IMG/VR virus record: IMGVR_UViG_3300037418_001469
Length of the DNA: 64,000 nucleotides
Origin: a virus
Strand: one strand, 5' to 3'
Shown here: piece by piece, positions 109 through 56,600 of the stretch
How positions within the stretch are numbered: position 1 is the first letter of the stretch
Layout of the letters: each line of letters starts with the position of its first letter
Notes under the pieces: model-generated
What the model was told of the DNA's origin: nothing
The model's database searches: none
The model's input: the letters and a program-made list of their open reading frames with translations, nothing else
Made by a program: the position numbers and the translations under genes

Positions 109-160
109 TGTTGACCAACTCCTTAGTTTTTGTATTCCTCCTCCTTAGCCTGATAGTTAC

Positions 161-189
161 ATTGTAACATAATTATAATACAACGTCAA
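161..189 (-). promoter_or_regulatory. sigmaA-type promoter
   Basis: TTGACG-N17-TACAAT with extended TG. Confidence 0.7.
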
Positions 190-229
190 GGCACGCAGAA
201 GTGAAAATGATTGTTTTTGCTCTTAATCA

Positions 230-259
230 TAATATACCCACTTCATGCGTGTCCTATTC
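230..259 (-). promoter_or_regulatory. putative sigmaF-like (forespore-type) promoter
   Basis: GAATA-N15-GGGTATATTA compared with the B. subtilis sigmaF consensus GYWTA-N15-GGnnAnAnTW. Confidence 0.4.
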
Positions 260-288
260 ATATTTTATGCATATTTTTTTAAATTTTT

Positions 289-1014
289 TTATAATCGGAA
301 AAAACCATATCTAACATCTTTATTTGCAGTGTTGTATCGGTCATGAGTCCCAATGTCTAACCAATACATATTCTCTTCTATATAACCATACAATTTGGAC
401 TTACCTACATATAAAGGGAAAGTGTTTGTCTCTACCATATAGAATGTATCTTTTGGAATCAAATCTAATACCTTTTTGTCCATTATGTATATTCCTGCAT
501 TAATTACTCTTGGTAAATTTATGTGACTAACTAAAAACTCAATACTTGGCTTTTCGATAAAGCCTATAATTTTGTTTTCTTCTAATACCGCCATTCCAAA
601 TTGAGTAGCATTTTTTACTGTTGCTAATGCAATTGTAATACCTTCTGTGTGGCTTTGGATTAATTTGTCTAGATTTATATTAGTAAGTATATCTCCATTG
701 AATACTAAAAATGGCTCATCATCAAGCAAGTCCTCGCAGTTCTTAATTGCTCCTGCTGTTCCTAATGGTATTTCTCCATCTTCTCTATATGTAATGTTTA
801 CACCAAAATTACTTCCATCACCAAAGTAGCTAACGATTTTATCATGTAGATAGCCAGTACTAAAGATAATGTCTGTAATGCTATGTTTCTTTAACAGTCT
901 AATAATATATTCTAAGTGTGGCGTACCGTATATAGGCAACATTGGCTTAGGAGTATGGTCAGTGAGGGGCTTCAGCCTTGTACCTTTGCCCCCACTCAAA
1001 ATAATAGCTTTCAT
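289..1014 (-). CDS. Sugar-1-phosphate nucleotidyltransferase (NTP_transferase family, mannose-1-P/heptose-1-P guanylyltransferase-like; no hexapeptide C-terminal domain)
   Basis: MKAIILSGGKGTRLKPLT..PKPM, LGTAGAI, VFNGDI, FIEKP, INAGIY and YWLDIGT motifs. Confidence 0.9.
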   Translation of the reverse strand: MKAIILSGGKGTRLKPLTDHTPKPMLPIYGTPHLEYIIRLLKKHSITDIIFSTGYLHDKIVSYFGDGSNFGVNITYREDGEIPLGTAGAIKNCEDLLDDEPFLVFNGDILTNINLDKLIQSHTEGITIALATVKNATQFGMAVLEENKIIGFIEKPSIEFLVSHINLPRVINAGIYIMDKKVLDLIPKDTFYMVETNTFPLYVGKSKLYGYIEENMYWLDIGTHDRYNTANKDVRYGFFRL

Positions 1015-1016
1015 TA

Positions 1017-1799
1017 CTACACCTTCTTCATTACAATATTATCAATAAAATCATGTTTGAAAATTTCATCTATGTGTACTGCTACAGTTTCTCCATTTGG
1101 ATTAAGCAGATAATAGACATATCTTCCTTGAAGTGCTTTTAGAAAATGATAAAAGTTCTCTGTGTCATCTTGCAACATGCTTTTATTGAGTTCGAACACA
1201 ACTGTTCCAACTTGTTTATTCTTTAACATTTCTTTCATTCCTAAGAATACATGATACTCTCCACCTTCTGTATCAATCTTTAGGAAGTCAATATATCCAA
1301 GGTCTTCATTGTCTAAAGCAACAGTATTGATAGTTAAAAATGATTGAGTATCAGAAATGAAGTCACTCTTGTATTGGTCACTATGTTGTTTGATAGAGCT
1401 ATTTCCTTGGAATCTATCTGAAATATGAAATCTTAATTTGGCTTCTTTAGAGTATACACCTTTCCTACTAACTGTAGAAAATTTAGTGTGTCCATTTATC
1501 GCTAGGTTATCTAATAGTAATTGACGAACTGCACTATTAGGCTCATAAGCAGTAATCTTTCCTTGCGGTCCTACTTTAAATCCTAACAAGACGCTGAAAT
1601 ATCCAATATTCGCTCCAACATCTACTACATTCATTCCTGCTTGAATATTTTGCATTACATAGTTTGTTAATCCTGCCTCATAGAATCCAAGTTGTACTAA
1701 GTCAGGAGTTAAACTTAAATCATCTGCTAATGTATAAATTCGTCCTCCTACTTGAAGTGTAACGAACATTCTATTGTTTCCTATATATGTACCGTACAT
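1017..1799 (-). CDS. FkbM-family SAM-dependent methyltransferase
   Basis: VVDVGANIGYFS, AYEP and IDFLKIDTEGGE motifs. Confidence 0.9.
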   Translation of the reverse strand: MYGTYIGNNRMFVTLQVGGRIYTLADDLSLTPDLVQLGFYEAGLTNYVMQNIQAGMNVVDVGANIGYFSVLLGFKVGPQGKITAYEPNSAVRQLLLDNLAINGHTKFSTVSRKGVYSKEAKLRFHISDRFQGNSSIKQHSDQYKSDFISDTQSFLTINTVALDNEDLGYIDFLKIDTEGGEYHVFLGMKEMLKNKQVGTVVFELNKSMLQDDTENFYHFLKALQGRYVYYLLNPNGETVAVHIDEIFKHDFIDNIVMKKV

Positions 1800-2956
1800 T
1801 ACAACACAACCTTTTCTATGGACTGTTTTAAAGTAATACCTACATCAGACCATGTTAATAATTCCATTTCCTCTCTAGCCTTCTTGCCTTTTTCTTTTAC
1901 TTCATCTTGATTTTCATATGTATACCTCATTAATTGTCGTAAATGGTCAAGACTAGGTTCTGCCCACTTCATTTCATCAGTAAAACCTGGGAAGAAATTC
2001 TCAGAGATTGCTTGCTCAAGTCTTGATGTTGTACTCTCTAGCTTATAATCAATCAGATAGCCATTGTTATTGCTTATGAAGTCTGTCTGCCCACCCCATC
2101 CTGTCGCAATACAAGAGATACCACTAGACATAGCCTCCATATAAGGTAATCCTACACCTTCACCTCTACTTGGCAGTACAAAGACATCTGATGCTGTATA
2201 TAAACCTCTTAGGTCTTCTTCGTTGAAATCACTTCCACTATACAAGATAGGTGCTCTGTCATCACCATAACCTAGCATATACCTATAGCTCAAGATATGG
2301 CTATGCACTGCTCTTTGAGCCTCTTTTTGACTAGGATTCCAATATGATTTAAGTATCAACGACACATTATCTTTGTTTGTAAATTCCTGCCAAAATGCTT
2401 TAAGTAGAACATCAGGTGCTTTTCTATGTTGCCAATGAAAAACAGATAAAAAATTAAATGTTTTAGTTGTTTCTTCATCTATTACGAAAGGCTTATTGCT
2501 AGGATTAAACTGGTCTAATTCTGCACCATGAGGAACCATAAAAATCGGAACTGTTACTCCACTGTCTCGTAATGCTTGCACATTTTGTCTTGACGGTACT
2601 AATACTGCATCTGCTTGATTAATAGTTGGGAACCAATCATTAGGTATTTTTGTTGTCTCCCAAACAGTATTAATAATTACTTTATCAAATCCGTTTGCTC
2701 GTTCTTTTGCAGGGTTAATACCATGTGGTTGTGCGTGATAAACTAATACCTTTTTCTTATCCTTAGCTAGTGGCTTAGCTATTAACTCTTTTAATCTCTT
2801 AGCTTGCTCAGGAATTAGTCTAGTTGGTGGAGTTCCAAAGTTTAATGGCTCAACTTTCACATCAACACCTGCTCTATCTAGTGCAAGTATATATTCACGA
2901 CTAGCACGAGCGTATCCTTGTTTACAATGTATAATTCCTCTCCATACTACTTGCAT
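1799..2956 (-). CDS. Glycosyltransferase family 4 (GT-B fold)
   Basis: GYARASREY N-terminus, RKAPDVLLKAF, DVFVLPSRGEGVGLPYMEAM (E-x7-E). Confidence 0.9.
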   Translation of the reverse strand: MQVVWRGIIHCKQGYARASREYILALDRAGVDVKVEPLNFGTPPTRLIPEQAKRLKELIAKPLAKDKKKVLVYHAQPHGINPAKERANGFDKVIINTVWETTKIPNDWFPTINQADAVLVPSRQNVQALRDSGVTVPIFMVPHGAELDQFNPSNKPFVIDEETTKTFNFLSVFHWQHRKAPDVLLKAFWQEFTNKDNVSLILKSYWNPSQKEAQRAVHSHILSYRYMLGYGDDRAPILYSGSDFNEEDLRGLYTASDVFVLPSRGEGVGLPYMEAMSSGISCIATGWGGQTDFISNNNGYLIDYKLESTTSRLEQAISENFFPGFTDEMKWAEPSLDHLRQLMRYTYENQDEVKEKGKKAREEMELLTWSDVGITLKQSIEKVVL

Positions 2957-2970
2957 AAAATATCCTCTCC

Positions 2971-4161
2971 TTAAATGCGATAGAAATTAGGTTTAATTGT
3001 CTTGTCTAACTTCTTAGCTTGTGGCTCTACTTGTGCAATCAGCTTTACAAATTGATTGTTAATAGCCATCCAATCCATACCAATAGCTTTATTTCTTCCT
3101 TTTGCACCTAACTCTTTTAGTTTTCTAGAGTCTTTTCTTTTCCAATCGTCGTAAAACAAGTTGAGTTTACGAGCCAAATCATCAGTATCAGCAATAGCCT
3201 GCTCGATGTTTCTGCCCATAATCAATGTGTCTCTTACTTTAATTAACTCTTGTCGGTCAACTACTAACTCTGTACAAGCTGAAAAGTCAGTTACTAGAAC
3301 AGGCGTTCCTGCTGACTGTGACTCTAAAATTGGCAATCCGAATCCTTCTGCCATTGTTGGTAATGCCATCACATCAAACATATTATACAACATATTTAGT
3401 TCGCTGTCAGGTACACCATTCATAGCATTAAATCCATTTGTGTGATATGCCTTATCTCCGATATTAAACCTAGTTACGAGTTCATCTATACTCCAACCTA
3501 CATCACGAATTTGTGAGTGCAAGTATAGTGCTACATCTTTTTTGTTTTCTGAAAACTTTGAGAATGCTTTTATTAGCGCAGGAAGATTTTTTCTTGGTTG
3601 ATTTCTAGCCACACAACCTACGACAAAAACATCATCTCTTCCTAATACAGTTCTTTTAATTTCATCAGTTTTTTCAAGTGGTAGAAAAACACTTGTATTA
3701 ACTCCATGTGGTATATATATCGGATTTCTTCCTAGAATATCAGCTACTAGTTTAAATGCAAACTTGCTAAACACAACAGGGATATCAATATCCTTAATCC
3801 AACTATGCCAATTAGGAGGAATAGGATATCCGTCAATAGGGAAATAACTAATCCAACATACTGACTTCCGTTCTTCCATGCTTGGAATAAACTCAGTCAT
3901 CCAAGGGTCGCCAAGTGTAAACACAATATCAGGCTTCTCACTTCTGATAAAATTTGCTAATACATCTTCTCCAAAATTTTCTCTATGTGTGTTGCAAGGG
4001 AGTATGACAAAAGGAAAATCATGTGGCTCTCCTTGATGCCCCCAACCAATTACTGTTACATCGTGTCCTGCATTATGTAGTGCTGTCGCTACCTCTTTAC
4101 TAACACGACCATATCCTGTACTGATAGTAGGACTATCACTCATGTAAACAATTTTAGCCAT
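2971..4161 (-). CDS. Glycosyltransferase family 4 (GT-B fold)
   Basis: SDSP..TGYGRV, IPHGV, RNQPRKN, LPTMAEGFGLPILES; start moved to MAKIVY, which follows a GAGAGGTG RBS. Confidence 0.9.
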   Translation of the reverse strand: MAKIVYMSDSPTISTGYGRVSKEVATALHNAGHDVTVIGWGHQGEPHDFPFVILPCNTHRENFGEDVLANFIRSEKPDIVFTLGDPWMTEFIPSMEERKSVCWISYFPIDGYPIPPNWHSWIKDIDIPVVFSKFAFKLVADILGRNPIYIPHGVNTSVFLPLEKTDEIKRTVLGRDDVFVVGCVARNQPRKNLPALIKAFSKFSENKKDVALYLHSQIRDVGWSIDELVTRFNIGDKAYHTNGFNAMNGVPDSELNMLYNMFDVMALPTMAEGFGLPILESQSAGTPVLVTDFSACTELVVDRQELIKVRDTLIMGRNIEQAIADTDDLARKLNLFYDDWKRKDSRKLKELGAKGRNKAIGMDWMAINNQFVKLIAQVEPQAKKLDKTIKPNFYRI

Positions 4162-4174
4162 TAAGCACCTCTCC

Positions 4175-4675
4175 TTATATCTCAGGTAAAAACAATTCTT
4201 TGTAATAATCTTCTTCAATTCCATACTGCTTTTTAACAGTATCAACCAAGTGGAACAATCCTTTATATTCTTCTATAATAAGCTCAACTTTTTCTTCTTC
4301 CTTTGATTCTACATGAATCCTCTCGCCAACTATAAGTTGAAACAATCGGTCATTAGCAATACCTGTTTGACATACTTGAATTTCATTCTTTCCTCGCTTG
4401 ATAGTCTTTGTAACATCTAAACTATCTTGCACAGCTTTAAACACATTATCCACATCTATCCAACGTTTGCCATGTTGGTAGACTCTCATATACATTGAGG
4501 CATAGGTGGTAATGGTTTCTTTAATAACGTCATTTGCTATTTGTCCAACCATCATCTCATAATCTTCTAAATCACGAGTTGTGTAAATTATTCCACGCTT
4601 ACCAATAACTCGGACACCATACATATTACTTTTAGCAATTGGTCTTTGTGGTATTTCTATAAAATAGTGTTCCAT
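4175..4675 (-). CDS. RusA-like Holliday junction resolvase
   Basis: P..P..K N-terminus, DVDNVFKAVQDSL, GIAND motifs. Confidence 0.8.
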   Translation of the reverse strand: MEHYFIEIPQRPIAKSNMYGVRVIGKRGIIYTTRDLEDYEMMVGQIANDVIKETITTYASMYMRVYQHGKRWIDVDNVFKAVQDSLDVTKTIKRGKNEIQVCQTGIANDRLFQLIVGERIHVESKEEEKVELIIEEYKGLFHLVDTVKKQYGIEEDYYKELFLPEI

Positions 4676-4693: not shown

Positions 4694-4720
4694 AAAAAAG
4701 GAGGGACGCAATGCCCTCCT
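4694..4720 (-). terminator. Rho-independent terminator after ERF
   Basis: AGGAGGGC-ATTGC-GTCCCTCC followed by a T run. Confidence 0.8.
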
Positions 4721-4728
4721 ATGTTAAA

Positions 4729-5544
4729 TTACTTACCTGCTCGGTCAGCGTTGATTGTTCCAATGATTTCTCGTGCATTATCAGCAGATACATCTTCTAG
4801 TTTTGCGACACCATATTTAGATACTAAGCCATTTAGGTACTCATCTTTATCAAATCCATCACCTTTTTTACGAGCAAGGATATTCAACATATTACCAATA
4901 GCTTTTTCTTGTTGTGGACTAATCTTCTCTAATGACTTAGTTTCGTTAGACTCTTCATTTGCTAATTCATCTTTACCTTCTTGCTCTGCCTCTTGCTTGC
5001 TAGCATTTTGTCTAGCTTGTGCTTTAGCAATAGCCTCTTGTTTACGCTTTTCTTTTTCTGCATCACTTAAACCGCCACCACTGTTATTGTTTTTTGGTGC
5101 GTTACTAGATGCATCTTTGTATCCGCTACTTGCGTGATTGCCATCGTCATCATCCTCTGATGATAATCCTAAAATAGCTGATAAACTATATCGACGACCA
5201 TATGTAATAGCTGAACCTGCTCCTTGTGCATTGAAGTCTTTAACTCCTCCACCTTTAATCTGATAAGCAGGAAGGACTAACTCAGATGATTGAATGTATT
5301 CTCCTGACTCATGCAATAACAAGGACGTAATTACTACGCTCTCTCCTTCTGAACCTGTTGATTGAAGCACAGACAAACCATACTTAGCTAACACAGGCTT
5401 AGCTGTATTGATAACTTCGTCTAGTGGAGCATAAGTACTTTTGAATTGTGGATTTTTTGCTGTATTATTTGGATTCTTTACCTCTGCTTGGAATTGAGCA
5501 TATGCCTTAGCTAGGTTTGCAATTGATTCGGACATTTTAATCAT
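4729..5544 (-). CDS. ERF-family single-strand annealing protein
   Basis: NP.FKSTYAPLDEV, LLHESGEYI, AQGAGSAITYGRRYSLSAILG..EDDDDG. Confidence 0.92.
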   Translation of the reverse strand: MIKMSESIANLAKAYAQFQAEVKNPNNTAKNPQFKSTYAPLDEVINTAKPVLAKYGLSVLQSTGSEGESVVITSLLLHESGEYIQSSELVLPAYQIKGGGVKDFNAQGAGSAITYGRRYSLSAILGLSSEDDDDGNHASSGYKDASSNAPKNNNSGGGLSDAEKEKRKQEAIAKAQARQNASKQEAEQEGKDELANEESNETKSLEKISPQQEKAIGNMLNILARKKGDGFDKDEYLNGLVSKYGVAKLEDVSADNAREIIGTINADRAGK

Positions 5545-11360: not shown

Positions 11361-11771
11361 TTATAGCATCATTAATGTTCCTTTTGGTCTGTTCTCTTTT
11401 GGTGGTTTTTCGTCGAATATATACTTCTCTAATTGTAACCAATCAATTCCACCATTCATTTGAGCGTATATACCTTTGTCATCTATGTAACAATGGGCAA
11501 ATATCTTTCTTCCTCCTTCGCCCCAATGCTCTTTTTCGGACGGAAGAATCTCATTAAATGAATCGTAGGGTATATTATGCAAGGCTAAAAAATTCTTAAC
11601 TGCTATTTCGTGTACTCCTGTTCGACAGGTCCAAATAGCAATCTCTCCACCGTTTTCTTTGATTCTACGAATCACTCTATCAGCATGTGGATTTAACTCT
11701 CCAATTTCAGGAAATTTTGTATTGATTGTTATTGTATCGTCAAAATCGACTGCATATGTTTTAAATCTCAT
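11361..11771 (-). CDS. Capless HAD-superfamily phosphatase
   Basis: AVDFDDTI (motif I), WTCR (II), K (III), YIDDK (IV). Confidence 0.85.
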   Translation of the reverse strand: MRFKTYAVDFDDTITINTKFPEIGELNPHADRVIRRIKENGGEIAIWTCRTGVHEIAVKNFLALHNIPYDSFNEILPSEKEHWGEGGRKIFAHCYIDDKGIYAQMNGGIDWLQLEKYIFDEKPPKENRPKGTLMML

Positions 11772-41388: not shown

Positions 41389-44300
41389 TTAAAATTTATC
41401 GTAGGCTACTAATTCAACCCATCTAATACCAAGATTATTTCCAGTTGTTGCAAGCTTAGCTTGTATCTTACCATTACCAGTTGGTAAATCAGTGAAATAA
41501 GAGCTAAACCAATCTCTTCTTCCGTTTACTGCTCCCCAAGTGAGAGGTAAATCTAAGTCTTTGTCAGTTCCACCAGAAATTCTGATTGTTGCCTTTTGAC
41601 CCGCACTTGATTGAGTGCTATTGATGTCGTCAGAGTAAATTACATATAAGCGATAGTATCTAGTCGCACCTGATTTAACAGAAGGTAGAGCAAATGCACT
41701 TAAATCGTAGTAATCAACTATATCTTCAAATGTTATACTGTCAGTTTGGAATTGTAAATCGCCTGCTATGCCATAGATAGGTCTTCGGTGAACTTCTACA
41801 TATTTTCCAATTTCTTGTATTGAACCATTCTGAACTTTCAATGTGCCATTTACAGTTGTTATATCAGTACTAGCGTCACCTAATGTGCTATTTCCTCCAA
41901 CAATCAACTGACCATTTACTGTGTAATCACCGTTTACAGTTGTTGTACCACTATATGTTTGAACACCAGTTACAGTAAAGTCTCCTGCTATTGCAACTCC
42001 ACCTGAATAGTTTATTGAAAATAATTCATTTCCACTAGTGTTATTAACTTGGAATAGCTTAGTAGAGTTAGTAACATTGGCACTAGGTTGAATCTTAATG
42101 CCTAGTCCTGCAATATTAAATGTGTTGGTGTTCTTGAATATATTAGCTTGGCTTGCTTTTATATCTCCTGCATTTGTAACTGCTGTGTCTACTTCTGATT
42201 TTGTATAAATATTGCTATATAAGTCAGTAATTTGATTAGCAGAGTGAGTATGAGCCGAAGGTGTAAATGTAGAAGGTTTTCCTCCTAATTCCGACCAATC
42301 AACAATTCCCCATTGAGTAACCCCTGCTGTTGCAGTTGCTTTAAGCACATACTGATTATACCCTGTTCCATTAGCAGGAACATGCATATTTCCATCACCA
42401 GTTGGATGAATATAATTATTGGCACTTGTAGCTACAGTTCCTAGCTTATTAAAATCATTAAATGACATGAAGCCATGAGTGGTAGCATTAGCTAATGCGT
42501 GAGCAGAACCACCTGAGCCTGCGTGACCATTAAGAGTAGTTGTATTGAAGTTACCTGAGTGAATAACTAGATTTGAGCCAATATAGAATGTGTTTGGTGC
42601 TTTATAAAGTTCCAACCATTCAATTAGAGTCTCAGCAGTACCTGATGTATCGCCATAGTTGCCAATCATAACTAAGTCAAAATATTTAGCTTCGGGGTCA
42701 AACTTATTAGCAGAAGAACCAGAAGTAGCATTATATCCTGATATTGTAGCCTCAAAATACTGGGTATTACCCGATGCAATAGTTACACCAGTAGCGCCAA
42801 AGTAGTTATAAGACATTGCTTGGTCAGTCGATATAGACAAATAGTTGTTATCTAGTGAGTCAGCACCGATATAGAATGTGCCTGCACCACTCTTCTTTGT
42901 AACCTTTGCCCTAACAAAGTAGGTACTATCAGGGTCAATAGGCAATCTAGTCTTAACTTTAATCCAAGTGCTATTACCTGATAAAACAACTCCTCTGTAA
43001 GTTGAATTATAATATGCACTTCCACCACTCTTATAATAAATCAATGGTGTCCAATCGTTATTACCAAGAATTAAAGAATTACTTCCATGCTCCATTGATT
43101 TTCCGATTGTTGTACCATTCAGGTTGTTTCCTGACAACTTAGCATATATTCCATCAGCAGTAGTTTGGTTAATTGCATTGTCTTGGATTCTTAGTAGCTT
43201 ACCGTAGTTTGAACCATCAATAAATCCATTTGCTCCCCCACTTACCGCTACTGCGTGTGCGCTTCCTCCTGAACCTATGTGATTAGTAGTATTGGCACTT
43301 ACAGTTACGAAGCTAGCATTCAAATTAGATACATCGACACCATCTACAGTTCCCGTTACTGTGATATTTCCAGTTACAGATACATTTCCACTTGTGTTAA
43401 TAGCTTTAGCGTTTAATGTTCCAGTTAACTGTCCTCCATTAAGTGTTAAATACAAGTCATCATGCTTATGGTCTCCACGAGACAAGGTATTCGCAGTTCC
43501 ATAGTTGCCACTTGCACCTGCCCAATTTTCAATACTATTTAATAGCTCTAAGTTGTCTTCCCATATATGCAAGTCAGTTCCTAGTGGACCTGCACCAACA
43601 ATTATATTATGTCTTCCATGTTCATGAGTAGGGTGGTTTAGGTCTAGCTTGTGTTCTGAAATTCTAGCATAATTGCTAATATGCCAATCCATGATAGTAT
43701 TAGGCAAGATTTTCTCTGCCCTAACTGCTCCGTTTGCCAAGTGGTCATGTTGGATACCAGTTTTATGTGGCTGACTTCCGTTCCACTTTTCAATCTTATG
43801 AGCAGGGAATACATCAGCAGATTCAGACCTTCTCCAGTGTGTACTTAGTTTACCAGTTTCAAAGATTGAAGAAGTTACATATGCTGTACCTCTTTCCTCT
43901 TTAGAACCATCAGCATTGAGTTCAGTTCTTAATCTTACACGATATTTGATTGGCACTGATTTATCAGGAATACCAGTGTCAGGGTTTGTCCTTGGAGTGT
44001 CATATGCACCTTCTGTAGATTGTAATCCTTGACCTTGATACCATTTTGTTTGCTCAGAAACTACCTTGTATCTCTTAAACAATGTCGCAGAAGTGCTAGT
44101 GGGAATCAATAGAGATGAACGACTATTATATTGGAAGTCTTCAAAACGAAGCCTATCTAGTGTCACCTTGCCACTTTCTTGTCTGATAATTACCCTGTGT
44201 TTTCCTGCAACTACACCTTTCATAACATCTTCTTTAATGTTTTCAGATGGTGGGAACGACATAACATGTCTGTGTGCTACATTGTTTACGAATGGTGCTT

Positions 44301-47300
44301 CTTGACTTAGATAATGACCTGAGTTCATCAATGTAGGCATCTCAATTTCAATCTTACCGAACTGAGGACCAACAATGTATGTCATATACCACCAAGATGT
44401 AAATTCGATTTGTATATTCATTGCTACATATGCTTTCGAAATATCTGTAGAAACAAAACCCTTTCCATTTGTTGCAATTTGCTGACCTGCTTTAGGAGAG
44501 TTTGTAGGATACACATATCCTTTTTCTAACTGCCAATCTCCATATACTTTGATTTCAGTCCAATCGCTAGTGTTTCCTGATGTTTGACCGTCTCCACTAG
44601 TCCAACCATTAGCCCAATCCCGTACATATCTTACGGGTTTTGCATCAAATGTGATAAATTTAGCATAGTGTGTATGGTCATGCAGAGAATGATAAGTAGG
44701 CTTTTCATTGTATGTACCTGACACCGCACTGTCATAAACGGTATACCAAGTATTGCCATCTTCTGAAACCTCAGTTTTAGTTCCTTTGTATACTCTGTCT
44801 ACACCGTATTTGTGAGATACGCTGATTTTACCAATCATATATGTAGAGCCTAAGTCAACTTTTATCCATTGATTTCCCGATGGAAGGACAATTCCACCGC
44901 TTGAAGGTGGTAAAGGATTTGCTGTGGTATCTCCCTCTAGAGCGTCAACTTCATAATCGTTAACGATTAATCCGACTGTTCCAGAAGTAGGAGCAACAGA
45001 AGTGGTTACTGTCATTCCTTTTGCCCTATTAGTGATTGTGCTATATTCCAATCCAGTATATTGCTCATTAATTCCATTAGCAGAAGGAGTGAACGGTGCT
45101 GTCTGTTGGTTGTCTGCGACAACAAACTTAGGAACAAATTCATCAACTTCATAGGTCACATTGAAGTTTGGTGATGAACCGTTATCAATAGCAACTAGCG
45201 TAGACGCATTATGAGTCTTGAAATATATATTATTTCTAGCTGTATAATCTGCCTCTACCCAACCGCCTGACGGAATAGCGTTAGCAGAAAACTCAATTCT
45301 AGAATCAGGAGAATAGTAGATTGTGTATGTATTTGCACTTGCACTTGTACGAACAGTGCTTCCTGATACTAGTTGACCAATTTTAATATTACTTGGAGCA
45401 GGACTATTTAACCATTCTCCTGCTTTTGGTCTAAATATCGTATTTCCTGTTCCTACTGTATAAAGCCTTTCGCCAACAGTACTTATCAAGTTATTACCGT
45501 TTGAATAGTTAGTTATATTCGTAATATCTTGCTCAATCTGTGCATACTGATAGTCGTATCCATATGTGGTTAATTTTGAGTATCCGCCTTCGTTTAGAAG
45601 TGGTTCGTTAACATGAAACTCCACAGCCGATTTTGACCTTATGTTTCCACTTGCATCATATATCCAATCACTTCTATCAGGTGTCCAACCGTCAGCACCT
45701 TGATATAGGATTCCACCCTCAAGTCCCATGAATGGGTCTCCAATATAAGAACCAGTTGGATAAATAAATGATAGGTCACCTGAACCACCGTAGTTAGCTA
45801 CATACATATATCTTCCATCAGGAGTGAAATCGAATCCTTTAGGGTTAGTACCAACATTGATAGTCATTGTAACTGTCTCTGTTGTAGGATTTATTTTCAC
45901 TATTTGATTTTGTCCGCCAAGTGTTACATATAGGTTTCCACCTACTACATTCATAAATGATGGCTTAGAACCAACATTTTTTATCGTTCTTACTGTAAAT
46001 GTATTCGTTGTTCTCATTGGTTCGAATGGATTCCAGTTTTCGTATACCGACTCACCTAGGAAAGCACCATAGTAATCTCTGTCAGCTTGAATTTCATCTA
46101 AAATCTGTTGTTCGTCAATTACAGAAATACTATTTGAACCGCCTAGAGAAATGAATAGTTTACCATTTATCAATCTAACGAAGTCAGGAGAATCTCCTAC
46201 TGGAATACGATACCTTACATATGTTGTTCTTGGACCCCCACCGTCAGTTTCCATACCATCCCCAATAGGACTTTCAGCAGATGTGTCACGACCAGTTAGT
46301 GCGTTGTATGGTGCAGTGCCAGTTTTATCAATAACAACCAATTCGCCATTTTCATTATCAATCACATACAATGTGTCGGCATCTGTGCTTTTTTCAATAC
46401 CATGTGGTCTGTACTTTTTAAGCGAACCGTCGGAATCTCCGTATCCACCATGACTATGACTCATAGACATACTCATTTGACCTGATTCACTTGCATTATA
46501 CTGACTACTCGCATCTCCACCTGTTACTTCGTTTAATCCGAACATAGCGTCTAGACCGCCATGAGCATTATCTGTTCCGTAGGCTGAGATAGGTATTCTT
46601 CCTTTTACCTTCCATAAATGAGAGTCGTGTGCTGATGTATCAATTACTAATACATCTCCGTCACCTGCCATAGTTATATATGTAAACAAGTTGCTATCTA
46701 AAACAAGGTCATATGGTTCGTTACCTAGAGGAATTTTATGATGAATGTATAAATCTCCATTTACTGAACTTGGAGGTGAATCTACAACGATAAATGAGTC
46801 AGGAACATTCATATCCATTGGGTCACTATTCAATACGAATAAGTGCTTGTGGTCCGCTAATTCCTCCCCAACAAATTTAATTCTAGCAGGACCCATACCC
46901 ATTTTCTTAGTATTAGTTGTTAAAACATCTTGTACTAAGTCCAACTGAACCATAGTATCATCACCTTGAACAGTGATATACGCAAAGTTACCAGTAGGGT
47001 GAATAGCAATATCAACAGGTTTTTTAGCAGGAATATCAATTGCTTTTACTTTAACACCAGTTGTTAAATCAATCTTCCATACTTGGTGTGCTCCTATTCC
47101 AGTTGCAGTATTACCTAGTAAAGCCTCTCCACTTGGATTCTCTCTCTTAAATCCATAATCAGAAGATGATGCTAAAAATAGACCGTTCTTCAATAGATTA
47201 TCTGATTGAATAACACCTGCATCCAATCCATCTACTCTTAAGTATCCGCCACCAATCAAAGTCTCACCTGTTTGGCTATTATACACTTGCATAACTTGAG

Positions 47301-49827
47301 CATCTAACCCAATGGTTGAGATGTGGTCTGCTGTAATTGAACCTGCACGAATGGAATCTGATGTAATAGCACCTGATTGAATCTTGTCTGCTGTGATACT
47401 TTGACCTGCTAACTCAGTTGTAGTTATAGCACCTGACTTAATTTGCAAAGAATCAATGCTGTTAGCTACAATTTTATCACCAGTAATTGAGTTACCTGAA
47501 ATCTTATCGCCAGTAATTGTTCCACCTGAGATAAGCTGTCCATTTAGTCTACCAACCGTTATAGTGTCCGCATTTACACTTGCAATCTTGGCATATTGAA
47601 TTGTGGCATCAGCTATCAGAGCATTAGTAATATTACCGCTAGCAATATTAGCTGTTTTAATTTCACCTGTTCCAATCTTTGCTGATGTAATAATACCATC
47701 TTTAATTGTAGCAGTTGTGATTGATGCATCAGCAAGAATACCTGACTGAGCAGTAATTGTTCCTACTTGCATACTAGACGCAGTTATGCTTGCTGTGGTA
47801 ATCGTTGCACCGTCGATAACTGTGTTACCCTGTGTATAATACTTAGAAGGAACGACTTCCTTAACCAATGATGGCTTTGTCCATTTTACTATTGCTGTTG
47901 CTCCACCTGTTCCCTCTACCGCTTCAATAAGTATTGGATACCATTGACCCTGTGTTAATGAGATAGTTCCTGTTGTTTCAACGCCAGTGTAACTAGGAAT
48001 ATTTACAACTACAGTGTTATTTACAACTATTTTTCCTAAGTCATCAGCAGTTAAATGGAATGAATAGGTTCCACTTTCAGGCGCATATATAAAACCTTGC
48101 CATCTAACAGCAAAATTGTCATTTTGACCTACAATTGTAGGAGAGCCAGTTCCCCAACTAAAGTTAACTGTTGGGTCAATTTGATGCCCTTTATAAGTTT
48201 GAAACTTATTAGTACTACTACCTGTATATGTGTAGTATTGACCTAACAAACCTTCTTTTCTAGTTCCAACTGTTAAATGGTCTGTATCAATTGCTCCTCC
48301 TGAAATTTTATCACCAGTAATTGTTCCGCCCGAAATCTTATCTCCAGTAATACTATTTGAAGAAATGTGCTGTGTCTGAATACTATTAGCCGATATATGT
48401 TGTGCTTGAATAGCATTTGCAGTGATATGGTTAGCATTAATCGCATTTGCGGTAATGTGATTAGCAGAAATCTGATTAGCAGAAATCTTATCTCCGTATA
48501 TACTATTAGCAGACAAATGTTGAGTTCGAATTGCATTTGCTGTTATATGTTGTGCATTGATAGCGTTCGCAGTAATATGTGTAGCATTGATAGCGTTAGC
48601 TGTAATATGTCCTGCATTTATACTATTAGATGATATATGACTGCTTTGAATTGTACCTGCAACAATATGATTTCCAGTTATACTATTTGAACTAATATGT
48701 TGACCTTGAATAGTATTAGATGAAATATGTTGAGAAGTTATAGCGTTCGCAGTAATATGCGTAGCATTAATGACACCTGCCTGTATATGACCTGAGTTGA
48801 TAGTATTAGCAGAAATATGACCAGTTTGAATGCTATTAGAAGAGATATGACCTGCCTGAACTGAGTTAGCTGATATATGTTCAGTTCTGATTGCGTTTGC
48901 GGTGATATGGTTAGCTGAAATACTGTTTGCTGTAATATGTTGAGCATTAATAGCATTTGCGGTAATATGCGTAGCGTTAATAGCATTTGCAGTGATATGG
49001 TTAGCCGAGACTTGATTAGCCTGTATCTTTTCACCAGTTATACTATTAGCAGAAAGGTGCTGAGTTGTAATAGCGTTAGCAGTAATATGAGTTGCAGTAA
49101 TAGCGTTTGCTGAAATCTCACTAGAGGTAATACTGTTTGCAGAAATATGTGTAGCATTTATAGCGTCTGCTTTAATTTTAGTAGCATCAATACTATTAGC
49201 AGAAATCTGATTTGTCTGTACAGAATTTGCAGATAGATGTTGTACTTGAATTGCATTTGCATTAATATGTACAGAATTGATAGCATTTGCTGTAATATGT
49301 GTAGCATTTATAGCATTTGCAGTTATTGACACTGCATTAATTGCACCTGCCTGAATTTGTGTTGCTGTAATAGTATTCGAACTAATATGCTGTGTTTGAA
49401 TAGCATTCGCACTTATTTTATCAGAAGTAATGGAGTTTGCAGAAATATGCTCAGCCTGAATAGAATACGCTGAAATATGCCTAGCCTCTATTGTATTCGT
49501 CCTGATATGGTCAGAGTTAATCGTCCCATCTGCTAAATCATCAGTAGAAATAATAATAGGGGCATTTGGCTCTTTTAAGCCACCATTTATATTACTACCA
49601 CCTCTAGCTATTGGACTTCCATTGCTCCACTCAACAGTAACCCAATCACCGACTCTAGGAATGTAGTTTCCTTCTATTCCAACCGCCTCTAGTATAAATC
49701 CGCTACCGCCCATATTTACATTGATTAGTCTGTCAGTAATTACTTGAACTACTTCACCATAATCAAGATAATTATTGTCACTTGCATTTGTTTCATATTT
49801 TAAAAATCTCTTGTTAAAGTAACCCAT
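41389..49827 (-). CDS. Giant multi-domain tail fibre/spike (2812 aa): 10-aa repeat shaft, PA14-like domain, YVTN-type beta-propeller, F5/8-like domain, distal fibre
   Basis: Dozens of HITANAINA.-like repeats; GLLGQYY...NFSWG.GSP...DNFAVRWQG...SGTYSF...DD; VGTNPKGFDFTPDGRYMYVAN; QWIKVDLG...VSEDG.TW. Confidence 0.85.
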   Translation of the reverse strand: MGYFNKRFLKYETNASDNNYLDYGEVVQVITDRLINVNMGGSGFILEAVGIEGNYIPRVGDWVTVEWSNGSPIARGGSNINGGLKEPNAPIIISTDDLADGTINSDHIRTNTIEARHISAYSIQAEHISANSITSDKISANAIQTQHISSNTITATQIQAGAINAVSITANAINATHITANAINSVHINANAIQVQHLSANSVQTNQISANSIDATKIKADAINATHISANSITSSEISANAITATHITANAITTQHLSANSITGEKIQANQVSANHITANAINATHITANAINAQHITANSISANHITANAIRTEHISANSVQAGHISSNSIQTGHISANTINSGHIQAGVINATHITANAITSQHISSNTIQGQHISSNSITGNHIVAGTIQSSHISSNSINAGHITANAINATHITANAINAQHITANAIRTQHLSANSIYGDKISANQISANHITANAINANHITANAIQAQHISANSIQTQHISSNSITGDKISGGTITGDKISGGAIDTDHLTVGTRKEGLLGQYYTYTGSSTNKFQTYKGHQIDPTVNFSWGTGSPTIVGQNDNFAVRWQGFIYAPESGTYSFHLTADDLGKIVVNNTVVVNIPSYTGVETTGTISLTQGQWYPILIEAVEGTGGATAIVKWTKPSLVKEVVPSKYYTQGNTVIDGATITTASITASSMQVGTITAQSGILADASITTATIKDGIITSAKIGTGEIKTANIASGNITNALIADATIQYAKIASVNADTITVGRLNGQLISGGTITGDKISGNSITGDKIVANSIDSLQIKSGAITTTELAGQSITADKIQSGAITSDSIRAGSITADHISTIGLDAQVMQVYNSQTGETLIGGGYLRVDGLDAGVIQSDNLLKNGLFLASSSDYGFKRENPSGEALLGNTATGIGAHQVWKIDLTTGVKVKAIDIPAKKPVDIAIHPTGNFAYITVQGDDTMVQLDLVQDVLTTNTKKMGMGPARIKFVGEELADHKHLFVLNSDPMDMNVPDSFIVVDSPPSSVNGDLYIHHKIPLGNEPYDLVLDSNLFTYITMAGDGDVLVIDTSAHDSHLWKVKGRIPISAYGTDNAHGGLDAMFGLNEVTGGDASSQYNASESGQMSMSMSHSHGGYGDSDGSLKKYRPHGIEKSTDADTLYVIDNENGELVVIDKTGTAPYNALTGRDTSAESPIGDGMETDGGGPRTTYVRYRIPVGDSPDFVRLINGKLFISLGGSNSISVIDEQQILDEIQADRDYYGAFLGESVYENWNPFEPMRTTNTFTVRTIKNVGSKPSFMNVVGGNLYVTLGGQNQIVKINPTTETVTMTINVGTNPKGFDFTPDGRYMYVANYGGSGDLSFIYPTGSYIGDPFMGLEGGILYQGADGWTPDRSDWIYDASGNIRSKSAVEFHVNEPLLNEGGYSKLTTYGYDYQYAQIEQDITNITNYSNGNNLISTVGERLYTVGTGNTIFRPKAGEWLNSPAPSNIKIGQLVSGSTVRTSASANTYTIYYSPDSRIEFSANAIPSGGWVEADYTARNNIYFKTHNASTLVAIDNGSSPNFNVTYEVDEFVPKFVVADNQQTAPFTPSANGINEQYTGLEYSTITNRAKGMTVTTSVAPTSGTVGLIVNDYEVDALEGDTTANPLPPSSGGIVLPSGNQWIKVDLGSTYMIGKISVSHKYGVDRVYKGTKTEVSEDGNTWYTVYDSAVSGTYNEKPTYHSLHDHTHYAKFITFDAKPVRYVRDWANGWTSGDGQTSGNTSDWTEIKVYGDWQLEKGYVYPTNSPKAGQQIATNGKGFVSTDISKAYVAMNIQIEFTSWWYMTYIVGPQFGKIEIEMPTLMNSGHYLSQEAPFVNNVAHRHVMSFPPSENIKEDVMKGVVAGKHRVIIRQESGKVTLDRLRFEDFQYNSRSSLLIPTSTSATLFKRYKVVSEQTKWYQGQGLQSTEGAYDTPRTNPDTGIPDKSVPIKYRVRLRTELNADGSKEERGTAYVTSSIFETGKLSTHWRRSESADVFPAHKIEKWNGSQPHKTGIQHDHLANGAVRAEKILPNTIMDWHISNYARISEHKLDLNHPTHEHGRHNIIVGAGPLGTDLHIWEDNLELLNSIENWAGASGNYGTANTLSRGDHKHDDLYLTLNGGQLTGTLNAKAINTSGNVSVTGNITVTGTVDGVDVSNLNASFVTVSANTTNHIGSGGSAHAVAVSGGANGFIDGSNYGKLLRIQDNAINQTTADGIYAKLSGNNLNGTTIGKSMEHGSNSLILGNNDWTPLIYYKSGGSAYYNSTYRGVVLSGNSTWIKVKTRLPIDPDSTYFVRAKVTKKSGAGTFYIGADSLDNNYLSISTDQAMSYNYFGATGVTIASGNTQYFEATISGYNATSGSSANKFDPEAKYFDLVMIGNYGDTSGTAETLIEWLELYKAPNTFYIGSNLVIHSGNFNTTTLNGHAGSGGSAHALANATTHGFMSFNDFNKLGTVATSANNYIHPTGDGNMHVPANGTGYNQYVLKATATAGVTQWGIVDWSELGGKPSTFTPSAHTHSANQITDLYSNIYTKSEVDTAVTNAGDIKASQANIFKNTNTFNIAGLGIKIQPSANVTNSTKLFQVNNTSGNELFSINYSGGVAIAGDFTVTGVQTYSGTTTVNGDYTVNGQLIVGGNSTLGDASTDITTVNGTLKVQNGSIQEIGKYVEVHRRPIYGIAGDLQFQTDSITFEDIVDYYDLSAFALPSVKSGATRYYRLYVIYSDDINSTQSSAGQKATIRISGGTDKDLDLPLTWGAVNGRRDWFSSYFTDLPTGNGKIQAKLATTGNNLGIRWVELVAYDKF
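48270..49530 (-). repeat. Degenerate 30-bp coding tandem repeat ([HKQ]I[ST]AN[AS]Ixxx)
   Basis: About 40 consecutive decapeptide units; a second, more degenerate block near 47330-47830. Confidence 0.9.
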
Positions 49828-53618: not shown

Positions 53619-56600
53619 TTAGTAGGAAGTTCCTTTCCATGTGAGATTAGTAAACCTTTGGTCTCTTTTAACCCCTTCAATTGCTTTTTTAACTGCTGTC
53701 TCAACACTAGCTTGCAATGCCCCTGAATTTTGACCACCTTCAACATGAACAGTGATATTAAAATTAATATCTCCACCACTGCTATTGTTTGTTTGGCTAT
53801 TTCCACCAACTAGTGATGTTACCTGTTTATCTGTGAAAACTTTTTCACCTTGTCTAAGTACTGCATTTATTTCGTCAGGCTTAAGTCTGTTAGGACTAGA
53901 GAAGTTCATCATTCCTGCGATACCACCGTTATGATAAATATAACTCTTACCTACATAACCAGTTTTGCCTTTGTACTTGACATGTGCCCAACCGTCTTTA
54001 ACTCCTAAGTATTCTACTTTTGTACCTTTAGGTAGAACGCTTATTACATTGTTTCCTGTTTTGGCACTTGAACGGAAATTCAATGCTGTCTTAGTTGTTT
54101 TATAGGTTGTCTTCTTATCGTCCTTATTGTCATCTTTCTTGCCTTTATCATTAGAACTTGATTGAGTCTTGTGTATTTCTGCCCATGTCTTAGGACCAAC
54201 TATCCCATCTGCTGTCAATCCATGTTTCTTTTGGAACGCTTTTACAGCCGACTCTGTTTTAGGACCGAATATGCCATCTTGAGGAACTCCTACAGCTTTT
54301 TGGATTTCCTTAACATCTGCACCTGTGTCTCCTTTATTCACTGTTCCGTGTTTATGACCCGATGAACCACCTTTTGATGGAGCCTTTGGAGTATTAACCT
54401 TAGTGGAATCAGGTTTAGGTGTTGTGGTAGTACTACCTGTGCTAGGTGCTCCTGTGCCACCTGGAGCTGTACTACCTGGTGGTGAACCTGTTGCTCCTTT
54501 TCCTGATGTTCCACTAGGAGGACCACTAGGCTTATCTTTTTGAGGTGGGGTTGTAACTGTACCACCACCACTAGTAGGTGCGTCAGGTGAGCCTGCTCCA
54601 TTTTTACCAGTTGGGTCCCAATCTTTAACACCTTTACCCTTAGATACCTTGTATAACTCTTGGTCAATCTTGTATCCTTCAGGAGCATTAAATGTTTGGT
54701 CCTTCATGATATTGAACATGCCTTCAGTAGACGCTACTATTTCCTCGATTAATGGTAGGAATGGTGCTAGCATATTTTGTAGCTCTGTTCCAAAATCCTC
54801 GTTGTTGAACATATTAGCAATGTCGTCTGGATTTCCAGTAGTAGCCGCTTTTGTAACCTTAGAAATAAAACCATTAACTAAATCTAGAAGACCAGTATTG
54901 TTAAGTAGTGAACTAGCTAATGAAGAAGAAATTGCGCTAGCTATTGATTGTTTTACGCTATCAATAAATGCTTGTGCAGAATCCATATTACCTTGCATAC
55001 CACCTGATAATGCATTAGCAAACGCCTCTTGTATTCCTGATGATAGTGTATCGACCAATTGTATGGCGTTTTCTCTAGCCTCATTCTGAACATCACGAAG
55101 GTCATTCATCTTTTCCAAGTATTCATCTAGAGTCAAGGCTCCTGCTTTGAATGCTCCAACTACAGCAGAACGATACTCTTCTATTCCTGACATAAGTTGG
55201 TCTTGCAATCCTGCGATGATTTGAAGAGTGGCTAGTTCTTCATTAGCATCCATCTTACCACCATCTGCGACTTTCTTGGAAGATGCAGATTTAACACCAA
55301 CCTTATCTTTAACTATGCCTTTTTGAATCTCTTCTGACTTTTCCTTAGACAGATTACTTTCAGTAGTAACGGTATACTTTTTAGTTTTTTTATCATAAAT
55401 CAATGATGCTTCGACACCGTACTTATCATGTAATTTATCTTTAATCTTTTCAGCGTCTTTCTGTGAATAGCTACCACCTATTTGAGTCCTATAAGTATCG
55501 CCCATTTCACCGCTGTTGAGCTTAGATTTTGCAATACTAAGATTGTCTTTTGCTCGTTTTCTGTCTGAACTTGTTGTGTAAGCCTTTTGTTGGATATATC
55601 CATCAAGACCTTTTCCTGTCAATTCAAACATAGACTGAGCGTTTGCTAATCTTTTCTCCTCTAAGGCTCTTAGTTCCTCTTGAACTGCTACTGCCTCTTC
55701 AAGAACTGTATACCAAGCCTTAGTTCCCTCTGCAAAATCATTTAACACACCATTAATTTGAGACATTTTTTGGAACAAGATATTAATATCTTCTTGGTCT
55801 GCTGAACGCTTAGCAGATATATATCCACCTGTTCCTACTCCTGAATTTTGCCATACTTGACCAAGAATATTAGCCTTATTACGCTTAGTCATATAAGTGC
55901 TATTCATCTCGTTGAGTTCATTAGCAACACGCATATATTCAGGTGAGCCTGCTTCGCCTGATAAGCTTCTTAACTTGTCATATCCGCCTCTGATGTAGTT
56001 AATACCATTAACACTGTTTATTCTAGGGTCTGCGAGTTGCTTTGTATTTAGTTCTTTATCCCACTCACCCAATTTCTTGTTAGTCTCAGTGAGTGTCTCA
56101 ACCAACTTGTCGATAGCTTTTACAGCATTACTATACTCTTTGTATTCATCTTTGTTACCTGCCTTCAAAGCCTTGTTAGCTAATTCTACATTACTTTTAC
56201 GAGCAGTTCCTAGTTGCTTTAATTGTTCTACAGTTTCATATCTTTTTTGGTAGACAGTCTCTCTCTCCTGTATAACCCTATCTGCAACTGCTGTTCTACC
56301 TGATGTACCTAGTGGGTCTCTGATATTTCCTGCACCATAAGTCATGTTGGCATCTTTGTAGTATGCATCTTTTAGAAATTGTGGATTTTTTAAATCTGCC
56401 TCCGCTTGCATAGATTCAATGAAACTTCCTATCATAGCTTTCACTATGTCAAGATGGCTAGCTTCACCCTTAGTTATGCTAGTAGTTCCGTTAGCAGTTA
56501 TATTTTCATATACACCATCATATCTTTTTGCTCCAACATAATCTTTATGAGCATTTACACTAGTCAACTTAAGTGGCTGTCCACTTGAAGTCATGTTGTA

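Follow-up and report, generated by a model that had tools for sequence, protein, structure and literature searches.

In the window (the whole 64,000-nucleotide stretch of viral DNA that was analysed), four sugar genes lie on the minus strand downstream of rusA. The first two, GT4-A (2971..4161, 396 aa, with an ATG start at 4161) and GT4-B (1799..2956, 385 aa), are assigned by Pfam as GT-B glycosyltransferases, predicted to be retaining. They are followed by genes for an FkbM-family SAM-dependent methyltransferase (1017..1799, 260 aa; Pfam and TIGR01444) and a sugar-1-phosphate nucleotidyltransferase (289..1014, 241 aa; Pfam NTP_transferase). The rusA gene itself (4175..4675, minus strand; Pfam RusA), for a RusA-like Holliday-junction resolvase, is the first past a terminator-like hairpin with a T-run that lies 3′ of ERF (4699..4720, minus strand), 24 nt upstream of the rusA start. 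Every Pfam match of the operon genes, as well as of RusA (23.0 bits against a cut-off of 22.8) and ERF (101 bits), is above the curated cut-off, and a RusA gene is at the equivalent place in the relative L008.

A sequence-only reading of this DNA had described a tightly packed four-gene set with intact motifs, directly after ERF and RusA and far from the structural genes, and ORFs, Pfam, junctions and motifs bear that description out. From the rusA stop to the GT4-A ATG there are 13 nt, containing a GGAGAGG ribosome-binding site; the gap between GT4-A and GT4-B is 14 nt, the GT4-B stop and FkbM start overlap as TAATG, and 2 nt separate the FkbM and nucleotidyltransferase genes. (An alternative GT4-A start, the TTG at 4245, would overlap rusA, and in GT4-A relatives the alignment starts only at residue 29 of that frame.) The structural genes share the strand but are separated from the operon by over 30 kb. 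No promoter had been seen between the ERF terminator and rusA, and a consensus scan of that interval agrees in having no promoter-like site. At the other end, just past the nucleotidyltransferase stop, a long imperfect hairpin (190..255, minus strand) precedes a promoter-like TTGACG-17-TACAAT at 189-161, ahead of the next gene, for a wHTH protein; RNA from 150-300(-) folds at -29.6 kcal/mol (z -2.7), and the hairpin is probably the operon end.

The carrier is a large phage of soil-dwelling spore-formers that had not been described before. Where the region is readable, in six relatives (G001/L007, L008, L013, L014, G305 and the window itself), the GT4-A/GT4-B pair stands at the same place in all six, and belongs to the fixed gene core of this phage lineage. 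The four genes are under purifying selection, with dN/dS of 0.11-0.22 against L013. A patatin-like lipase is conserved near the operon.

The enzymes and their sugar donor

Both glycosyltransferases can be assigned to CAZy family GT4 from their Pfam scores, a modelled GT-B fold (two Rossmann-like domains, the C-terminal helix crossing back) and the combination of E-x7-E with a basic R/K pair, the family's binding site for the donor phosphate. Glycos_transf_1 and Glyco_trans_1_4 (cut-offs 26.4 and 27 bits) give 60.9 and 51.2 bits with GT4-A, and 51.8 and 57.2 bits with GT4-B. Invariant residues are R190, K191 and E272-x7-E280 across 38 homologues of GT4-A, and R178, K179, E266 and E274 across 40 sequences for GT4-B, where H177-R178-K179 and E266-x7-E274 are conserved. 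The AF2 models have pLDDT values of 94.5 (GT4-A) and 94.6 (GT4-B), and all their leading Foldseek matches are GT4-type GT-B enzymes; 3oy2, B736L of PBCV NY-2A, is first for both (E 4.8e-21 and TM 0.78 for GT4-A, TM 0.69 for GT4-B), and ManT, PimA and PimB' are also among the top matches. The non-phage relatives of GT4-A are in Planctomycetota and Poribacteria.

Profile scores and a glycine-rich SAM motif (VDVGANIGY, residues 59-67) similarly place the methyltransferase, by prediction, in the FkbM family: Methyltransf_21 (PF05050) gives 73.2 bits against a cut-off of 22.7 and TIGR01444 81.1 bits against 37.7, and the protein falls in phrog_8156. The match to an RfbT profile is weak (18.6 bits, under the cut-off), and an RfbT match is also on record for the L014 orthologue. 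Family and motif fit the methyl cap proposed at the outset, but not as a constant feature. FkbM genes are present in four of the six relatives, with copy numbers of 0, 1 or 2, and since two relatives lack the gene and one has it twice, the cap would be accessory.

With 155 bits on NTP_transferase (PF00483; cut-off 21.2), a GGKGTRLKPLT loop and an EKP motif (FIEKPS), the last protein has the features expected of a sugar-1-phosphate nucleotidyltransferase. It is short, the C-terminal left-handed beta-helix domain being absent. Its best NCBIfam match, counted here as a further link to mannose, is mannose-1-P guanylyltransferase of the Rv3264c type (NF052502) at 185 bits where the cut-off is 440, covering positions 2-233 of 352 in the model; the match ends at position 233 because the C-terminal half is lacking. 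The best PDB match is a UTP-glucose-1-P uridylyltransferase (8x7s, 133 bits), GMPPs coming next, and identity to the ManC N-domain is only 23%, so that UDP-glucose is a possible donor. As the score falls short of NF052502 membership and the best solved relative is a UDP-glucose enzyme, donor specificity is read from context.

That context includes a stand-alone PMI-type cupin encoded elsewhere in the same phage, outside the window (C1:1451-1855; 72.8 bits on Pfam MannoseP_isomer), which shares 36-43% identity with the mannose-6-P isomerase (PMI) domain of Bacillales ManC, a likeness newly found here. Because of this cupin, a ManC-associated sister clade of GT4-B (below) and the B736L-like folds of the GT4s, the donor is probably GDP-mannose; this is the most likely candidate, at somewhat better than an even chance, and UDP-glucose would be the one otherwise. 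For chlorovirus B736L, GDP-Man was the best-bound donor (PMC9614988). A phosphomannomutase was not found in the 74% of the genome searched, though the relative G001 encodes a PGM/PMM-family mutase. Of the donor synthesis first proposed, the phage would supply only part: the nucleotidyltransferase and the distant cupin, but no mutase in the DNA searched.

Families, motifs, fold models and selection all support the enzymology first suggested (an NDP-sugar made by the phage, one or two sugar transfers and a methyl cap), and the module can be taken as functional and phage-borne, its four proteins being predicted to be soluble and mildly acidic (pI 5.8-6.3, no hydrophobic segment). The identity of the sugar and the order of the steps we infer to be as follows. 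The stand-alone cupin would convert fructose-6-P to mannose-6-P, and a host mutase, or in some relatives a phage one, would yield mannose-1-P, from which the 241-aa nucleotidyltransferase would form an NDP-hexose. Two alpha-linked sugars would then be attached successively by the two retaining GT4 enzymes, and the FkbM enzyme would O-methylate the glycan, probably on its terminal sugar. The product would be a short glycan on a cytoplasmic acceptor, and in some relatives it would carry a methyl cap.

Candidate acceptors

The acceptor had been left open by the sequence-only reading, correctly in our judgement. Because the enzymes are soluble and export or lipid-carrier machinery is absent, it is most likely protein, with virion proteins leading; fixation of the GT pair in the lineage and the location of the nearest viral GT relatives in head-gene modules also favour protein. 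Cytoplasmic protein glycosylation, most likely of a virion protein, is therefore tentatively preferred, at rather less than an even chance.

Phage DNA is another candidate, with glycosylation of the T-even kind, or of the kind in MT/5mYOX-dependent GT clusters, whose sugars would guard the genome against restriction. The sugar genes share a transcription unit with recombination genes of the DNA-metabolism arm, and the GT pair belongs to the conserved core of the lineage. T4 alpha-GT bears a remote resemblance to GT4 enzymes (HHpred table, PMC6024577), and there are documented cases of sugar-activation genes alongside a GT-B enzyme that acts on 5hmC (bioRxiv 10.1101/2023.12.21.572611). However, the initial remark that no hydroxymethylase, TET or JBP gene is visible in the window extends to the wider search, in which only canonical ThyA was found. 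The sole thymidylate-synthase homologue (449 bits on the ThyA equivalog model) is beside DHFR and TK; G001 likewise has a single ThyA match (423.9 bits), and in L008 ThyA directly adjoins DHFR. Neither Tet_JBP (PF12851; a search run without a positive control) nor C5-MTase (PF00145) has a match in G000 or G001, in the 74-76% of each genome covered, and no acceptor-creating enzyme of the T-even/5mYOX type (a dCMP or dUMP hydroxymethylase, or a C5-MTase with TET/JBP) emerged from that same portion. Further, the GTs are acidic and have no T4 AGT or BGT Pfam match, and the 50 best Foldseek matches of each model include no DNA GT. With only canonical ThyA by DHFR, and TET/JBP and C5-MTase not found, DNA becomes a less likely acceptor, and even allowing for the ~26% of the genome outside the sequence searched, such glycosylation is very improbable. 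More improbable still is a variant in which the DNA is hypermodified with a methyl-capped di-hexose, the acceptor step being independent of TS-like, TET-like or MTase enzymes or encoded in the remaining ~46 kb. O-methylation is not known for any DNA-linked sugar; if this reading is true, DNA would for the first time be seen to carry an O-methylated glycan, and the two enzymes would be the first DNA glycosyltransferase pair from family GT4.

A different type of acceptor is suggested by chromosomal kin. Over its full length, GT4-B shares 44-46% identity in blastp (45-48% in a six-frame search) with chromosomal GT4s of spore-forming Bacillales. The phage clade of GT4-B is sister to a clade of these, and the named bacterial relatives among the matches listed are all endospore-forming Bacillales. 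In three of five contexts the sister-clade GT4s share an operon with a bifunctional ManC (NTP_transferase plus PMI), and besides ManC the chromosomal clusters contain a GT2 and a CgeB-like (Glyco_trans_1_2) GT4. The B. cereus cluster is ~5 kb from two CotZ-family (ExsY/CotY-type) genes and that of P. spongiae adjoins a GerA operon. The element, which has ParM and further maintenance genes of plasmid type, resembles a phage-plasmid of spore-formers, and its module might glycosylate coat or exosporium proteins in the mother-cell cytoplasm, where soluble GTs normally build spore-surface glycans, and so remodel the spore surface. Against this, the chromosomal cluster is a rare accessory (four of 301 sampled Bacilli) whose spore role is itself only putative. 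Only GT4-B and the cupin are shared with it, the kin of GT4-A being elsewhere; the phage sigma factor is not of the sporulation type, and the genes are in a lytic-type replication operon behind rusA. A spore-surface acceptor is unlikely. The logic common to phage and spore-former loci would be that virions and spore surfaces are both assembled in the cytoplasm.

In Firmicutes, envelope acceptors are glycosylated by GT4 enzymes such as TagE, TarM, BgsA/IagA and MGS. An envelope polymer or glycolipid (wall teichoic acid, a lipoteichoic-acid anchor or another lipid-linked glycan) could similarly be modified here on the cytoplasmic face, the effect being to block superinfection or to keep progeny from sticking to cell debris. 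The mutase of G001 and the patatin-like lipase nearby would suit such a role, as would weak NCBIfam matches to IagA/BgsA, MGS and TuaC models, but all of those matches are far under their cut-offs and generic for GT4. Moreover, the proteins are mildly acidic without an amphipathic or transmembrane segment, neither a flippase nor GtrA/B nor a polyprenyl-phosphate GT is present, and the GT pair is a fixed core of the lineage rather than a variable moron under a promoter of its own; the chance of an envelope acceptor is small. The module also lacks the marks of lysogenic conversion of the Gtr or TarP/TarM type (membrane or carrier-lipid parts, or basic GTs at the membrane, and a variable moron site), with no hydrophobic segment, a pI of 5.8-6.3 and a location fixed in six of six relatives.

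There may, alternatively, be no macromolecular acceptor. The best sequence and fold matches include ManT, from the methylmannose polysaccharide pathway, as well as MshA, BshA and sucrose-phosphate synthase, and the logic of the MMP pathway is GT4 plus O-methyltransferase plus GDP-Man. A free cytoplasmic product, whether a methylated manno-oligosaccharide resembling mycobacterial MMP or a small molecule bearing a sugar (MshA/BshA/sucrose-phosphate-synthase type), is nevertheless highly doubtful: it has no apparent benefit for the phage, the partner enzymes BshB/C, MshB-D and MmpH are absent, and at 13-20% identity the matches show no more than membership of the GT4 family.

Speaking indirectly against the preferred virion-protein acceptor, the major head protein lacks a Ser/Thr-rich C-terminal tail, and collagen-like repeats are absent from all the DNA examined. 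The place of the cluster, within the replication/recombination arm and over 30 kb distant from the head and tail genes, also points away from virions; mycobacteriophage virion GTs reportedly lie near structural genes. As a relative is present in a cultured strain, Paenibacillus xylanexedens (GCA_003833245.1), the acceptor question is open to experiment. Should virion or spore be the acceptor, phage antigenicity and adsorption, or spore surface properties, would be pertinent.

Comparison with known systems

With T-even and MT/5mYOX-dependent DNA glycosylation, the module has in common phage NDP-sugar and GT-B enzymes among DNA-metabolism genes. It differs in that no hydroxymethyl-acceptor enzyme was found in the portion searched and that its GTs are GT4 and not T4 AGT/BGT. 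The ManC-GT2-GT4-GT4-GT4 clusters of Fictibacillus, B. cereus, Cytobacillus firmus and Paenibacillus are akin through GT4-B and the cupin, a kinship that points to phage-host gene exchange. However, the phage is without their GT2, CgeB-like GT4 and third GT4, while they are without GT4-A and FkbM, and the phage nucleotidyltransferase is of another lineage.

The best structural match of both GT4s is the chlorovirus GT4 NY-2A B736L / PBCV-1 A546L (PDB 3OY2/3OY7), also a viral, soluble, retaining GT-B enzyme, though identity to GT4-A and GT4-B is only 16-19%. The mycobacteriophages Che8, Corndog and Myrna are said to decorate virion proteins with soluble phage GTs, some with methyltransferases. 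Soluble phage GTs (with methyltransferases in some) and cytoplasmically assembled virion proteins are the likeness; sequence kinship is not demonstrable, gene location is different, and the mycobacteriophage glycans are on C-terminal tails of capsid or tail-tube proteins, a kind of tail that the major head protein here does not show.

Closest in composition are cassettes of cyanophages and uncultured Caudovirales (GT with FkbM or another MTase and NDP-sugar enzymes), in which a phrog_2170-type GT4, with 27-34% identity to GT4-A, is similarly paired with a methyltransferase and all proteins are soluble. An example is the gp014-gp016 cassette of Synechococcus phage S-CBS4, whose GT is located between portal and capsid genes and adjoins a methyltransferase, and GT4-FkbM fusions occur in uncultured Caudovirales. 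The present unit differs from the S-CBS4 type in being a compact four-gene set behind rusA in the replication arm rather than in the head module, and in having its own nucleotidyltransferase, plus a PMI-type cupin elsewhere in the genome. Phage-borne glycosylation is nearly unexplored beyond mycobacteriophages and giant viruses, though genomes reveal many cassettes. The module is a further case of the known, uncharacterised phage methylated-glycan cassettes, and a small one of four genes, with predicted soluble products and fixed in its lineage.

Layout and integrity of the operon

On the minus strand, GT4-A (2971-4245 in its longer TTG frame) is followed by GT4-B (1799-2956), the FkbM methyltransferase gene (1017-1799) and the nucleotidyltransferase gene (289-1014), with Pfam matches to Glycos_transf_1/Glyco_trans_1_4 for both glycosyltransferases (GTs), to Methyltransf_21 (73 bits) and to NTP_transferase (155 bits), respectively. 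Upstream, and likewise assigned with Pfam, are RusA (4175-4675, minus strand), ERF (4729-5544, minus strand) and a patatin-like lipase. The true start of GT4-A is the ATG at 4161, which lies 13 nt past the rusA stop behind the ribosome-binding site GGAGAGG; relatives can be aligned only from residue 29 of the TTG frame onward. GT4-A and GT4-B are 14 nt apart, GT4-B and FkbM overlap as TAATG, and 2 nt separate FkbM from the nucleotidyltransferase gene. The four tightly coupled genes after ERF and rusA, described in the sequence-only reading, are confirmed in every detail. Between ERF and rusA, 24 nt ahead of the rusA start, lies a terminator-like hairpin that has a T-run. A consensus scan of the interval from this terminator to rusA detected no promoter-like site, as that reading had claimed, and the nearest strong consensus promoter is upstream of ERF. 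After the nucleotidyltransferase stop there is a long imperfect hairpin. Matches of the GTs to GT4-conflict (PF20706) are under the cut-off and overlap Glycos_transf_1, and this label was therefore given no weight.

Intact catalytic motifs, also claimed earlier, are found in all four proteins: R190/K191 and E272-x7-E280 in GT4-A (invariant across 38 homologues), H177-R178-K179 and E266-x7-E274 in GT4-B, GGKGTRLKPLT and EKP in the nucleotidyltransferase, and the SAM motif VDVGANIGY in the FkbM protein, which also passes TIGR01444. Together with dN/dS values of 0.11-0.22 against the relative L013 (Nei-Gojobori; 0.12, 0.11, 0.22 and 0.21 across the four genes) and a GC content the same as that of the remaining phage, this rules out a decaying host fragment.

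An undescribed lineage of phage-plasmid-like elements

The window corresponds to bases 39604-103603, read on the reverse strand, of a 126,449-bp IMG/VR record (G000) classed as a provirus and estimated to be 74% complete. The record encodes portal, scaffold, major head protein and terminase, along with an amidase endolysin, PhoH-PIN, RecA, DnaB, primase, a DnaE-type polymerase, guanylate kinase, RNR, a PD-(D/E)XK nuclease and a sigma-70/ECF-type factor, whose generic type led to rejection of a sporulation sigma link. Located immediately 3′ of the sugar genes are a wHTH protein, a metallophosphoesterase, a ParM/Alp-like actin, T4SS-like proteins (pilin-like, TrbL, VirB4-like ATPase and coupling-protein-like ATPase) and a Replic_Relax relaxase. 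The stretch from actin to relaxase (G000:C1:106343-120247; L002:3044-16948), just past window position 1, is a plasmid or conjugation-type module within a tailed-phage genome; coupling protein and relaxase are common to G000 and its relative G001. A nucleotide search against GenBank phages gave no match to any, and terminase identity to the B. megaterium phages Staley and Slash is only 30%; the lineage is therefore undescribed. An SPbeta-like identity, prompted by DnaE, RNR and the giant ORFs, was rejected on the same two results. Since the phage's own GT4-B was found on a 173,589-bp contig, about 46 kb lie beyond the record.

GT4-A has dozens of homologues (54-88% identity) on contigs of 100-180 kb, one from Paenibacillus xylanexedens. 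The relative in P. xylanexedens lies on contig RPHH01000009.1 (GCA_003833245.1). Species-representative genomes and PLSDB plasmids yielded no member of the phage family. In every relative with a readable region (G001/L007, L008, L013, L014 and G305) the order SSAP, (RusA), GT4-A, GT4-B, nucleotidyltransferase, wHTH, metallophosphoesterase is kept, and a more distant contig has the GT pair only; the pair, in most cases together with the nucleotidyltransferase, therefore forms a fixed core of the lineage, whose elements are of about 173 kb. Two relatives have no FkbM gene; the window, L014 and G305 each have one, and in one relative there is a second, weak FkbM-like gene besides. The methyl cap is accessory.

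The single-strand annealing protein (SSAP), ERF in the window, L013 and L014, is Sak in the Paenibacillus element (L008:8430-9248), with the flanking patatin and GT genes unchanged. In G000 an HNH-AP2 homing-endonuclease-like gene (G000:C1:2782-3270, L003) splits thyA from the DHFR gene; the two are adjacent, with no such insertion, in L008. A match to the anti-Pycsar Apyc1 family (G000:C1:15618-16388, L003; 134 bits) and the NADAR and PRPP-synthase-like genes near the sugar cluster of L014 may represent anti-defence genes. A heptose pathway, suggested by the phrog_1238 "phosphoheptose isomerase" label of window 11361-11771 (minus strand, 136 aa), was rejected: there is no SIS match and a weak one to a BT0820-type HAD phosphatase, so that the label looks misleading.

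The donor sugar

Taken alone, the nucleotidyltransferase leaves the donor ambiguous. Its best NCBIfam match, Rv3264c-type mannose-1-phosphate guanylyltransferase, scores 185 bits, a value under the cut-off since the protein has no C-terminal domain; its best match among solved structures carries the name UTP-glucose-1-phosphate uridylyltransferase (133 bits), with eukaryotic GMPPs behind at about 96 bits. Outside the window, within the ThyA-DHFR-TK operon, a stand-alone cupin of 134 aa (G000:C1:1451-1855, L003) matches MannoseP_isomer with 72.8 bits, is 36-43% identical to the C-terminal mannose-6-phosphate isomerase (PMI) domain of Bacillales ManC, and probably belongs to the sugar pathway. 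On the map it is about 100 kb from the sugar genes. Chromosomal homologues of GT4-B are 42-48% identical, the named ones all being from endospore-forming Bacillales, and in three of the five contexts examined a bifunctional NTP_transferase+PMI gene and a small GT2 precede the homologue in one operon. GT4-B and the cupin share an evolutionary link with these ManC-linked clusters.

The AF2 models of GT4-A and GT4-B (pLDDT 94.5 and 94.6) are both closest to chlorovirus B736L, for which the best binding is of GDP-mannose (PMC9614988), and the top matches also include the GDP-Man enzymes ManT, PimA and PimB'. G001 is without the cupin but has a 553-aa PGM/PMM/GlmM-family mutase (L012:364-2025; G001:C1, about 119.8-121.5 kb) adjoining a Toprim gene; none was found in the 126,449-bp, 74% complete G000 record. 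Cupin, ManC neighbourhoods, fold matches and G001 mutase together favour mannose, with GDP-mannose a moderately probable donor and UDP-glucose a rather unlikely one.

Candidate acceptors and known cassettes

The four sugar proteins are soluble with mild acidity, and they are accompanied by no component for export, flipping or carrier-lipid attachment, so whatever accepts the sugars has to be accessible from the cytoplasm. A protein is the best-fitting candidate. Among phages, the closest GTs (phrog_2170) sit in head modules with adjoining methyltransferases, and GT4-FkbM fusions occur in uncultured phages. No feature of the structural proteins marks them as glycosylation targets, and a BclA-like or serine-rich acceptor was rejected, there being no collagen-like repeats in the whole record and no Ser/Thr-rich C-terminal tails. 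Two giant minus-strand ORFs in the tail region, at window 41389-49827 (2812 aa) and 53619-63998 (3459 aa), are Ser/Thr/Gly-rich, without such repeats. The core position is fixed, the genes have no promoter of their own, and the enzymes are acidic and soluble, all of which makes lysogenic conversion by modification of envelope polymers a poor fit.

Spore-surface glycosylation is an alternative to a protein acceptor of this kind, given that the sister clade of GT4-B is from spore-forming Bacillales, that CgeB-like GTs occur in the sister clusters, and that CotZ-family or GerA genes neighbour the cluster in two genomes (B. cereus and Paenibacillus spongiae); against it, the sister cluster is a rare accessory, present in 4 of 301 Bacilli sampled class-wide. 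The conserved form of this cluster, seen on chromosomes of Fictibacillus, B. cereus, Cytobacillus firmus and Paenibacillus spongiae (L045-L048), is ManC(GMP+PMI)-GT2-GT4 with two convergent GT4s, one CgeB-like; in B. cereus two CotZ-family genes are alongside. No published characterisation of it was found.

DNA as acceptor is disfavoured, even though the sugar genes are placed among DNA-metabolism genes, T4 alpha-GT is remotely GT4-like (PMC6024577) and about a quarter of the genome is outside the searched sequence. Known DNA sugar clusters rely on acceptor-creating enzymes (bioRxiv 10.1101/2023.12.21.572611). The TS-like or TET/JBP genes that the sequence-only reading had proposed to look for reduced, within the searched 74-76% of G000 and G001, to ThyA: the sole TS homologue of G000 is a ThyA equivalog (449 bits) grouped with DHFR and TK, G001 likewise has a single ThyA match, and in L008 ThyA is directly beside DHFR. 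C5-MTase and Tet_JBP gave no match in either genome, the Tet_JBP search being without a positive control. The GTs match neither T4 AGT nor BGT families in Pfam, and no DNA GT is among the top 50 fold matches of either model.

The earlier description and its hedged interpretation, that the phage makes its own donor, adds one or two sugars and caps them with methyl, both hold. What is new is the probable GDP-mannose donor, for which a further phage gene far from the operon also speaks, the finding that the cap is optional, the fixation of the GT pair in a new lineage, the evolutionary link of GT4-B and the cupin to the spore-former clusters with ManC, and the negative search for DNA-acceptor chemistry. 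To our knowledge, an acceptor has been proven for such phage cassettes in mycobacteriophage systems only. Phages repeatedly carry sugar cassettes of this sort, and the operon is a further member of an already known type.
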